From an uncultured Desulfobacterales bacterium (lineage in GTDB: Bacteria > Desulfobacterota > Desulfobacteria > Desulfobacterales > B30-G6), in NCBI GenBank assembly GCA_964435695.1, contig CAYTAQ010000003.1:1-62178 (forward strand): DNA of 62,178 nucleotides, read 5' to 3'. Below the pieces are notes generated by a model. That model had not been told where the DNA came from and did not search any database. It was given only the letters and a program-made list of their open reading frames with translations. The translations under genes were made by a program, and so were the position numbers. Positions 205 through 34,415 of the stretch are shown here, piece after piece; positions within the stretch are counted from its first letter, which is position 1; each line of letters starts with the position of its first letter.

Positions 205-250
205 GACTGAAAATCCCCGTGTCGGCAGTTCGATTCTGTCACTCGGCACC
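205..250 (+). mobile_element. tRNA-Phe(GAA) 3' fragment, probable att site of an integrative element
   Basis: GACTGAAAATCCCCGTGTCGGCAGTTCGATTCTGTCACTCGGCACC gives anticodon loop CTGAAAA, variable loop, T arm GGCAG-TTCGATT-CTGTC and acceptor 3' strand; upstream sequence has no D arm and AGAGA does not pair fully with TCCCC. Confidence 0.8.
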
Positions 251-259
251 TATAAAATC

Positions 260-295
260 AAGGGTTTAGCCACATCGGTTAAGCCCTTTATTTTT
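260..295 (+). terminator. Intrinsic terminator after the tRNA fragment
   Basis: AAGGGTTTAGC-cacatcg-GTTAAGCCCTT, 11-bp stem with 2 G-U pairs, followed by TATTTTT. Confidence 0.65.
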
Positions 296-309
296 GCCTA
301 TCTGGAAAA

Positions 310-353
310 TACCCCTCATATACCCCTCATTTGAAAGGACAATAAGGGACAAT
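310..353 (+). repeat. Two tandem direct-repeat pairs, candidate integrase arm-type sites
   Basis: TACCCCTCAT at 310 and 321; GGACAAT at 337 and 347; 10-11 bp periods, 60-100 bp from the tRNA fragment. Confidence 0.55.
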
Positions 354-376: not shown

Positions 377-919
377 TTATAAAAATAATCGCATAAGAGA
401 CCTGGCTGGATAAGGCCCTCTTGGGTTTATAAGCCCGATAGTTTTTTTGTGTTGTCTTTTAATAATTTTTAAAGATTCCTCTAAGTCGCTATCATTGGAG
501 ACCACAACGGCGCAATCAAAGACATTTAACCATGAATCATTCAAGAGGTGTACCGCAAGATTTACATCGGACCCCTTTTCTTCGGTTTTAATTATTGGAA
601 CAAAAAATCGCCTATCTTTAAAATTGGGATTATAGCTTGCCAATGGAGCGATGACGTCATGCGTGCTGAAATGGCCCAAGTGAATTTCTATTTCCGGGAT
701 GTACGCCTTGAGAGCATTTAAATATGTTTTCTGCCTGAGAGGCTGGCCGGGATCAATTCTACCGGTTACGTGGGCTGAAAAATATTTTATTGAAATGATT
801 TGATGTTTTGGATCAAGTAGTTTCTGAAACAATGACTTGAAATCAAGCCATTTATAAGGGGTGCCTTTTATCGCGCCATAATAAAAATTAAAGCCATCGA
901 CGTAAATATAGGTTCGCAT
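377..919 (-). CDS. NYN domain (LabA/DUF88, PIN-fold) ribonuclease, possibly C-terminally shortened
   Basis: IYVDGFNFYY, EEKGSDVNLAVHLLND and VVSNDSDL acidic motifs of NYN proteins. Confidence 0.88.
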   Translation of the reverse strand: MRTYIYVDGFNFYYGAIKGTPYKWLDFKSLFQKLLDPKHQIISIKYFSAHVTGRIDPGQPLRQKTYLNALKAYIPEIEIHLGHFSTHDVIAPLASYNPNFKDRRFFVPIIKTEEKGSDVNLAVHLLNDSWLNVFDCAVVVSNDSDLEESLKIIKRQHKKTIGLINPRGPYPARSLMRLFL

Positions 920-1008
920 TTAGGCCACCCCAAAAAAAGCAGGGGCCTCAAGGTTGCCCAAGAGGCCCCGCGCCCTGAGACGAAGCTGCAGGGGTTGTTT
1001 ATCGTGGC
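920..1008 (-). ncRNA. Structured leader RNA or attenuator upstream of the NYN gene
   Basis: Minus strand: CCCTG/CAGGG hairpin (973-993), GGGGCCTC/GAGGCCCC hairpin with inner GG-GCAA-CC (942-969), then U7 (932-938) ending 12 nt before the ATG. Confidence 0.6.
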
Positions 1009-1012
1009 TAAT

Positions 1013-1041
1013 ATGGTAGGACTTATTGCCCAACATGTCAA
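1013..1041 (-). promoter_or_regulatory. Sigma70 promoter of the NYN leader
   Basis: TTGACA (1041-1036), 17 nt, TACCAT (1018-1013); CAACATGT repeated at 1031 and 1052 around the -35. Confidence 0.7.
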
Positions 1042-1385
1042 GCAAAAACCGCAACATGTTAAACATATCGATATATATTGATATATTGCAAAAACTTTAA
1101 TTACTCGAAATGCGCGCCGGGTTCGGAACGGTTTTTTTTATCCTCAATCAGGATCCCTTCCCGATCTTCGAAGCGCCTCCCTGATATCGCTATCATCTGA
1201 CACGGCCGAAATTATGCGATCTTTCTCGGGCTCCAAAGATATAGAATGTTCAACCGTTAATCGATCGAAAAGTTTATAGTAGGCCCACATGAGATCATAC
1301 CTTGGATGTGAAGGAAGGTATTTTTTAACATAGTTGATTGTGGTTTATTTCCCGTTGAAGGTCAATTGATAGACAATCGTATCTA

Positions 1386-34090: not shown

Positions 34091-34160
34091 GCACCCTGTT
34101 TACTTGGCCCCTTGAAAACACCGTATGATCCGTTCAACGCAGATATTTCGGTTATGTATC

Positions 34161-34345
34161 CAGGGGCAGGTCTTCTGGCTCCCCAGCCCTTTCAGCAGCC
34201 TTCCCATTTCGCTTTTGCAAAACAGTGGCTTAGGTCGGCTGAAAAGGTTCTCCCCCGGCGTTCACCGGGAAAAGCAGGGTTACAGCGGCGGGACCGCTCC
34301 CGATTTGCACGGGATTCCCTATTAAGCCGTAACGGCACCTAACAT
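34161..34345 (-). ncRNA. Cobalamin (AdoCbl) riboswitch
   Basis: Minus strand AGGTGCC...AATAGGGAATCCCGTGCAAATCGGGAGCGGTCCCGCCGCTGTAA...GCCACTG...GGGAAGG...GAGCCAGAAGACCTGCC (B12 box). Confidence 0.93.
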
Positions 34346-34415
34346 GCTGCAACCATAGAAGGAATGGATAATGCAGAAATAATCTTCTGAAAAAATTTGG
34401 ATGAACTGCTGATCC

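Follow-up and report, generated by a model that had tools for sequence, protein, structure and literature searches.

The stretch of DNA analyzed here, called the window below, comprises 62,178 nucleotides (nt) of contig CAYTAQ010000003.1 from an uncultured Desulfobacterales bacterium. Near its left end, on the minus strand, it carries a gene for an NYN-domain protein preceded by a promoter and a short leader, and this leader is the subject of the present analysis together with the gene that follows it. The features assigned at the locus are as follows.

1013-1041, minus strand: sigma-70-type promoter, with TTGACA at 1041-1036, a 17-nt spacer and TACCAT at 1018-1013 (10 of 12 consensus matches)
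930-1003, minus strand: conserved RNA unit, as delimited by the covariance-model match (67.9 bits, E 6.8e-20)
973-993, minus strand: hairpin P1, CCCUG(C)AG - CUUCGU - CUCAGGG, 7 base pairs (bp) with one bulged C (RNAfold)
939-971, minus strand: hairpin P2, the intrinsic-terminator stem, GC-GGGGCCUC-UU-GG-GCAA-CC-UU-GAGGCCCC-U-GC (RNAfold)
932-938, minus strand: U7 run of the terminator, directly 3′ of P2
920-931, minus strand: 12-nt spacer GGGGUGGCCUAA with the ribosome-binding site, between U7 and the ATG at 919-917
377-919, minus strand: gene for a predicted NYN-domain ribonuclease of the PADLOC HEC-09 family, 180 codons, PF01936
390-391, no strand: truncation breakpoint of the NYN gene, leftward of which DNA toward a tRNA-Phe 3′ fragment replaces the last ~33 NYN codons

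Transcription is predicted to start at ~1006-1005, which gives a leader of ~87 nt (~1006 to 920, minus strand). Within the RNA unit, a 5′ flank (AAACAAC) is followed by P1, a CGC linker, P2 and the U-run. From its foot upward, P2 has two closing pairs with a bulged U, a G+C stem of 8 bp and a UU/UU internal loop, above which 2 bp carry the GCAA loop. A preliminary description of this DNA had reported a TTGACA-17-TACCAT promoter, an ~88-nt leader with two hairpins and a GC stem with a GNRA loop, followed by U7 and 12 nt to the ATG. All of these elements were found again at the positions listed above. It had also proposed that a 5′ GCCAC pairs with the GUGGC that covers the ribosome site. This pairing can form in the window (duplex z -1.4), yet among 79 leaders it shows no conservation (mean z +0.18, with 1/79 below -2); moreover, with a transcription start near 1006, GCCAC is only partly transcribed. 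Taken by themselves, the single-sequence statistics of the window do not exceed chance: its leader folds with z = -1.52, 19 of 200 shuffles folding equally well, and a 2.5-kb scan returned 12 promoter-like sites for 6.8 +/- 2.6 expected.

The leader was then compared among 80 homologous loci fetched from one-genome-per-species contigs of at least 15 phyla. The groups sampled were Desulfobacterota, Bacteroidota, Ignavibacteria, Planctomycetes, Alpha-, Beta- and Gammaproteobacteria, Atribacterota, Nitrospirae, Gemmatimonadales, Zixiibacteriota, Terriglobales, Sumerlaeia, Chloroflexi, Armatimonadetes, Leptospirales, Verrucomicrobia and Kiritimatiellia. Almost everywhere, the 140 nt located 5′ of the homolog genes contain the same two-hairpin sequence, with the consensus AACUNCCCCUGNGGUUUCGACCNCAGGG-YGC-RRGGCC...GGCCYY-UGC-UUUUU. 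In an alignment of 43 leaders (A2, MAFFT), RNAalifold proposed a structure of 18 pairs, 16 of which show compensatory changes. Paired cells amount to 96.8%, and cells changed on both sides number 136, compared with 36 +/- 6 in shuffles; none of 500 shuffles matched A2 on any covariation measure. When the 3′ partners were slid as a control, pairing fell to 35-57%. The second helix (P2) alone is 99.8% paired, 9 of its 10 pairs being changed on both sides.

A covariance model built from such leaders (R1), as the preliminary description had suggested, matched directly 5′ of NYN and on the same strand in 78 of the 80 loci as well as in the window, and its scan found no further copy of the RNA in 630 kb. 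One of the two misses (L079) is a sequence cut 48 nt upstream of the gene. In most homologs, 6-18 nt separate the model match from the start of the gene. A promoter-like site (at least 9 of 12 matches) with a -10 element ending 12-19 nt before the first P1 pair was present in 38 of 79 leaders and in 2 of 79 control segments. Conserved sequence lies in the 5′ flank and the base of P1 (CCCC/GGGG), which are the best kept of all, in the base of the P2 stem, whose closing GC...UGC is kept in the family, and in the 3-nt linker. Both hairpins are capped by UUCG or GNRA loops, which differ from member to member. Mimicry of a T-loop or tRNA by the P1 loop was considered and dropped, since this loop is a variable UUCG-type cap. 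The order promoter, RNA, terminator, RNase gene therefore holds across the NYN (HEC-09) family. The absence of a conserved structure from homolog leaders had been named beforehand as the outcome that would speak against the proposal; the opposite was observed, both in the 78 of 80 loci matched and in the compensatory changes at 16 of 18 pairs. Thus, despite the weak statistics of the single sequence, the comparison of homologs, through covariation and linkage, makes the leader features highly significant. The leader is a conserved structured RNA.

The protein encoded at 919-377 matches PF01936 (NYN) with E 3.7e-9 and 37.7 bits for a cut-off of 24.2. The Pfam search returned NYN only, with no similarity to the ToxN, CptN or TenpN families. 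It also matches PADLOC HEC-09 (E 1.7e-33), as does the homolog P0036 over its full length (5.2e-37). The catalytic motifs D8, E113-D118 and N142-D145 are kept in the window protein, and the acidic positions of YxDGFN, EEKGSD and SNDSD do not vary in the family, to which 7,988 or more clusters at 90% identity belong, and 5,795 at 50% identity with E <= 1e-3. A sequence search of solved structures gave no match for the NYN protein. AlphaFold predicted an NYN fold for the full-length P0036 (predicted local distance difference test, pLDDT, 84; predicted template modeling score, pTM, 0.85), and the best Foldseek matches of this model were 2QIP (E 1.9e-8) and the NYN domains of MARF1. The protein is most likely an NYN (PIN-like, metal-dependent) endoribonuclease, as predicted from these analyses, and would act as a type III-like toxin. 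Several homologs (in CP027479.1, OW967205.1 and OW959920.1) are annotated as '6-hydroxy-3-succinoylpyridine hydroxylase/monooxygenase HspA', a name probably inherited from Pseudomonas putida S16 that does not suit an NYN nuclease fold.

Most NYN relatives have 206-212 residues, and the window protein, with 180, is ~33 C-terminal residues short. The earlier suspicion that ~25 residues were missing was therefore well founded, although the deficit is somewhat larger. Family homology ends at residue ~177 (window 389-391), the last 4 codons and the stop being unrelated. In the P0036 model, the segment 175-212 consists of two helices on either side of a core strand (183-187), all predicted with high confidence. 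Because the window protein ends before this segment, it lacks an integral strand and helix of the domain. A contig of run X1 spans 211-1163 and supports the truncation junction. A contig of run X4 is identical over 391-775 and then continues in frame (...M-QYANFSKTI), matching the family C-terminus (ELMQYANFNKRIRKG), which indicates that a full-length allele exists in a sister population. The NYN gene of the window is a truncated and, as judged from the modeled fold, probably inactive allele; without the core strand and helix, the window module would probably be a disarmed remnant with an intact RNA gene and promoter.

Relatives of the window RNA occur as tandem arrays. In the 4.6-kb mobilizable E. 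coli plasmid NZ_CP145651.1, 3.5 tandem units of 33 nt precede a terminator and then NYN, and a near-identical E. coli plasmid has one more copy, i.e. ~4.5 units. The 33-nt unit reads CCUGUGGCGUGCCGCAGG-CGAAGAAACAACCC (the array unit can also be written AAACAACCC-CCUGUGGCGUGCCGCAGG) and matches the flank and P1 of the window (AAACAACC-CCUGCAG...CUCAGGG), while R1 aligns the last E. coli copy together with the terminator. As judged from this alignment, P1 is homologous to the repeated unit of the E. coli plasmids. The arrays in these ColE1-type small plasmids (4.6 and 9.3 kb) are located as follows.

L201, 1081-1193: array in a small E. coli plasmid
L260, 225-374: array in a small E. coli plasmid (3.5 or ~4.5 units in the two plasmids)

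Two complete units were found in Desulfonema limicola (L019), in L210 and in a 3.5-kb plasmid (L261). In these three loci the first unit keeps both hairpins and has lost its U-run, the last unit alone retaining it, and the two P2 copies of L019 differ by a compensatory A-U/G-C change. The resemblance to type III systems noted in the preliminary description is thus extended by ToxI-like tandem arrays in these relatives.

In other loci the RNA stands apart from the NYN transcript. On three GC-rich proviral contigs (L226-L228), it is located 3′ of NYN on the opposite strand (47-49 bits), with its own TTGACA-17-TAGCCT promoter and a terminator that abuts the NYN stop codon. The metagenome contigs L126 and L145 have the same convergent RNA/NYN layout. 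The RNA genes of the three proviral contigs lie at the following positions.

L227, 2016-2091, minus strand: convergent RNA gene
L226, 2450-2525, minus strand: convergent RNA gene
L228, 1149-1224, minus strand: convergent RNA gene

The position of the RNA on the 3′ side, on the opposite strand and under its own promoter in five loci indicates that it is a separate gene. Its transcription was followed in assembled contigs only. Metatranscriptome contigs cover the whole module, and RNA-derived contigs of L217 and L213 span P2 and NYN without transcript ends. RNA-derived contigs running from P2 into NYN show that read-through transcripts exist. In the Leptospira-like locus L217, a contig assembled from RNA-seq run X21 (depth 57) has its start precisely at the P1/P2 junction (2955) and extends across NYN, leaving the promoter and P1 uncovered; this start could be a processing site or the end of the assembly.

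The association between RNA and protein is not symmetrical. An intact NYN gene is accompanied by the RNA in 78 of 79 cases. Conversely, a metagenome scan with a pattern describing the RNA only gave 71 true motif matches, 53 of them with at least 720 nt downstream, and these 53 loci comprised 26 with an intact NYN gene, 13 with a fragment or disrupted gene (3 of which may be start-codon artefacts) and 14 with none. The NYN remnants end after residues ~9 to 43, and such varied end points indicate independent deletions. A site-specific insertion behind NYN genes cut after the YVDGF motif was ruled out for the same reason. The neighbors of orphan RNAs are type II toxin-antitoxin pairs, prophage genes and housekeeping genes. 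Among them, L106, L109, L144, L157, L119, L135 and L082 are high-scoring orphans that lack NYN and adjoin a GNAT/DUF1778-like pair, a VapBC-like pair, RHH/ParD-like antitoxins, phage terminase genes or sdhB.

More distant NYN clades (27-37% identity) likewise have a promoter, hairpin(s) and a terminator, in this order, in front of the gene, but with other hairpin sequences. Clades with divergent RNAs were found on Klebsiella, Xanthomonas, Thiothrix and Pseudomonas plasmids and on Bacteroidota-type proviral contigs. A second class of leader, with a conserved GCGAUUAAGUUACGC-like core and a terminator, is located ~100-200 nt 5′ of NYN in L203, L204, L205 and L207; it occurs twice in a 5.7-kb Klebsiella plasmid and once in Xanthomonas, Thiothrix and large Klebsiella plasmids. 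The Bacteroidota-type homologs (27-36% identity; L233-L259, from IMG/VR) have TAnnTTTG-like promoters and another two-hairpin RNA (e.g. CGCCAUACUUUCUUGUAUGG plus a terminator) ~60-120 nt 5′ of NYN. Since distant clades share the layout and carry other hairpins, these sequence comparisons suggest that RNA and protein change together across clades.

The module is frequently carried on plasmids. A homolog was found in 437 plasmid records, including plasmids of 3.5-5.7 kb in which the module is the main cargo; the records include small Klebsiella, E. coli and Salmonella plasmids as well as Leptospira and Xanthomonas plasmids. Only 10 of 5,426 complete E. coli genomes carry a homolog, always on small plasmids. 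GenBank phage records with a homolog number only 3, and IMG/VR loci 51. In one locus (L034, 691-7728), the NYN module lies between the Mod (N6_N4_Mtase) and Res (ResIII helicase/nuclease) genes of a type III restriction system, and a gene similar to the one upstream in L034 was found in five loci. The preliminary reading as a candidate toxin-antitoxin or defence module is supported by the plasmid records and by this one restriction-modification locus. Clustering of all neighboring open reading frames revealed no conserved protein partner, only antisense artefacts and small clusters. The type II VapBC systems resemble the module in that their PIN-domain toxins belong to the PIN-like superfamily, are small and single-domain and are often plasmid-borne. 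VapC, however, is neutralized by the protein VapB, whereas the NYN module has a conserved RNA in that position and no conserved protein partner.

The RNA class appears undescribed. At the gathering threshold, Rfam 15 placed no family at the leader in the window or in 27 homologous loci. The best match, RF02353 BjrC68, reached 24.7 bits for a gathering threshold of 39. The match to this Bradyrhizobiaceae small RNA covers mostly the terminator hairpin and an AACUAC 5′ flank, leaving the P1 region unaligned, and the literature on BjrC68 was uninformative for the leader RNA. An Rfam scan by E-value gave no ToxI or abiF-type family. Literature searches for NYN proteins linked to type III systems, RNA antitoxins or RNA motifs yielded no relevant paper, in agreement with the earlier remark that such an arrangement was not known as characterized for NYN proteins. 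The 2017 classification of the PIN superfamily lists bacterial NYN (COG1432-type) proteins as having unknown function. Payne et al. (bioRxiv 10.1101/2024.01.29.577857) put HEC-09 forward as an NYN candidate that occurs within defence systems; the words 'non-coding' and 'ncRNA' are absent from the main text on HEC-09, and an RNA partner appears not to be described in that part of the preprint.

The closest known arrangements are those of ToxIN, CptIN and TenpIN (Blower et al. 2012, PMC3401426), in which one promoter, a non-coding RNA, an intrinsic terminator and an endoribonuclease gene follow one another, carriage is on plasmids or with defence functions and there is no protein antitoxin. ToxI repeats measure 36 nt, to be compared with the ~33-nt tandem repeats of some NYN modules (PMC3401426). 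Two of the features that define type III systems are present at the locus, namely an adjacent non-coding RNA with an upstream promoter and an intrinsic terminator between the RNA and the NYN gene; a third, tandem direct repeats, was found only in relatives. Unlike ToxIN, CptIN and TenpIN, most NYN modules have one RNA unit of two hairpins, the second being the terminator itself. In Clostridioides difficile, AbiF (Abi_2) with its abiF RNA motif (RCd22) likewise places a structured RNA, in one or two units, beside a toxic nuclease-like protein, and this RNA acts both in cis, by lowering transcription, and in trans, by direct binding, in the manner of a type III antitoxin (bioRxiv 10.1101/2025.04.15.648962). 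The AbiF protein is HEPN/Cas13-like, its RNA motif is unrelated and its action is experimentally supported, whereas that of the NYN module is predicted.

We propose that the RNA and NYN form a type III-like toxin-antitoxin or abortive-defence pair, a proposal to which we give an even chance. The constitutive promoter would start transcription 5-8 nt before P1, and most transcripts would end at the P2/U-run terminator and so supply an abundant ~70-nt RNA. A minority would read through, allowing NYN to be made from its own ribosome site. The RNA would bind NYN and keep it inactive, making contact probably through its conserved 5′ flank, the 3-nt linker and the foot of each hairpin. If the supply of RNA fell, upon loss of the plasmid or locus or upon a shut-off of transcription on infection, free NYN would cut cellular or invader RNA. 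The abundance of the RNA, its binding to NYN, the inhibition, the toxicity and the trigger are steps that we infer. The arrays, the crippled upstream terminators, the separate-gene layout, the module as cargo of tiny plasmids and the frequent disarming of NYN fit a toxin-antitoxin pair and argue against an attenuator that acts in cis alone. Between an inhibitory RNA and one that NYN requires as a cofactor they discriminate incompletely, and both the linkage asymmetry and the separate-gene layout fit such a cofactor equally well. This and several other observations weigh against the pair as proposed. When HEC-09 was cloned together with its native promoter region, no protection was seen against the coliphages tested, and the passages of the preprint that deal with it are silent on toxicity (bioRxiv 10.1101/2024.01.29.577857). 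The fold of ToxN/AbiQ is unrelated to the PIN-like metal-dependent fold of NYN, and most NYN modules, that of the window included, have a single RNA unit, at variance with ToxI, CptI and TenpI. A sigma-70-like promoter precedes 32% of orphan RNAs as compared with 50% of intact modules, and the orphans may have arisen by recent decay and not be antitoxins that were retained. Finally, the proposal is drawn from sequence and structure prediction.

The main rival to an inhibitory RNA is an RNA that serves as an obligatory subunit, scaffold or processed substrate of an NYN ribonucleoprotein. NYN would be inactive or unstable in its absence, and the complex would be the working enzyme, e.g. a sensor/effector in defence or RNA processing. 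We consider this possible, although rather unlikely. It would account for the near-constant presence of the RNA beside NYN, for its status as an independent gene in the convergent loci, for the joint change of RNA and protein subfamilies and for the location of the conserved positions at the helix junction and not in the UUCG/GNRA loops; the lack of phage defence reported for HEC-09 in the preprint passages would be no argument against it. Identical tandem units and a built-in terminator that would over-produce the RNA relative to the mRNA are, however, hallmarks of a stoichiometric antidote, the frequent disruption of NYN beside an intact RNA points to a costly protein, and a place as main cargo of tiny plasmids fits an addiction module better. 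The idea that the RNA is an integral subunit of a small ribonucleoprotein nuclease, in which it would position, license or sense for the NYN active site, is in our judgment unlikely; were it true, the modules would represent a widespread RNA-dependent class of effectors, distinct from toxin-antitoxin and guide-RNA systems.

An RNA acting only in cis, as a 5′ leader or attenuator that NYN perhaps binds or cuts and that has no function in trans, seems to us less probable still. The RNA does lie mostly between the promoter and the NYN start, with its terminator 6-18 nt before the gene, and the contigs running from P2 into NYN demonstrate read-through. An attenuator is nevertheless difficult to reconcile with the five loci in which the RNA is downstream, on the opposite strand and behind its own promoter, with first units that keep both hairpins yet cannot terminate, with the 3.5-4.5 P1 repeats of the E. 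coli plasmids, which have no obvious attenuator role, and with high-scoring orphan RNAs that persist without NYN. In addition, no conserved antiterminator pairing was seen, and pairing between the 5′ end and the ribosome site is at chance level in the 79 leaders. That there is no functional RNA at all, the locus combining a chance promoter with the terminator of an upstream gene, or representing a DNA-level site such as an attachment site, we regard as extremely improbable. The weak single-sequence statistics (fold z -1.52, promoter-like sites not enriched) and the orphan copies that adjoin prophage genes would agree with it. Against it stand compensatory changes over at least 15 phyla that beat every shuffle, the conserved position of the promoter, the fixed orientation relative to NYN and deletion end points in orphan loci that vary and so define no site-specific junction. 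It is effectively refuted by the linkage in 78 of 80 loci and by the covariation.

If the toxin-antitoxin interpretation is true, the modules would add a new and very widespread family to the few type III (RNA-antitoxin) systems, among which its toxin would be the first of PIN-like/NYN type. They would also provide the bacterial NYN (COG1432-type) family with a partner and a testable role, and Rfam with a new class of structured RNA. If the HEC-09 construct carried its own RNA antidote, the null phage result may be less informative. Whatever the mechanism, the RNA model lets annotators find both the modules and their decayed remnants.

The surroundings of the module in the window were also inspected. 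The preliminary description had placed it in an island, which is unproven: the neighbors are ordinary, though NYN abuts a tRNA-Phe 3′ fragment, on which the gene converges. Three features lie between the left end of the window and the truncated gene.

208-252, plus strand: tRNA-Phe(GAA)-like 3′ part that covers the anticodon loop through the acceptor end and lacks the 5′ half
260-288, plus strand: terminator-like hairpin beside the tRNA fragment
309-330, plus strand: perfect tandem direct repeat of 11 nt, ATACCCCTCAT x2, in the interval that separates the tRNA fragment from the truncated end of NYN

The fragment was called neither by ARAGORN nor by Rfam; alignment to tRNA-Phe, together with a depth of 100-600x and many different flanks in four metagenome runs, identified it. 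It is probably a leftover attachment-site copy of an integrated element, and the 309-330 repeat may be the arm-type site of a recombinase or the scar of the rearrangement that cut NYN. In two other loci (L023, 3617-3873, and L019, 3633-3703), tRNA genes on the strand of the RNA-NYN module precede it by 50-220 nt. These loci and the window fragment suggest that the module is often found at tRNA-linked integration hot spots. Elsewhere in the window, an unrelated cobalamin riboswitch aptamer (RF00174, 84.1 bits, full length) was detected at 34148-34359 on the minus strand.

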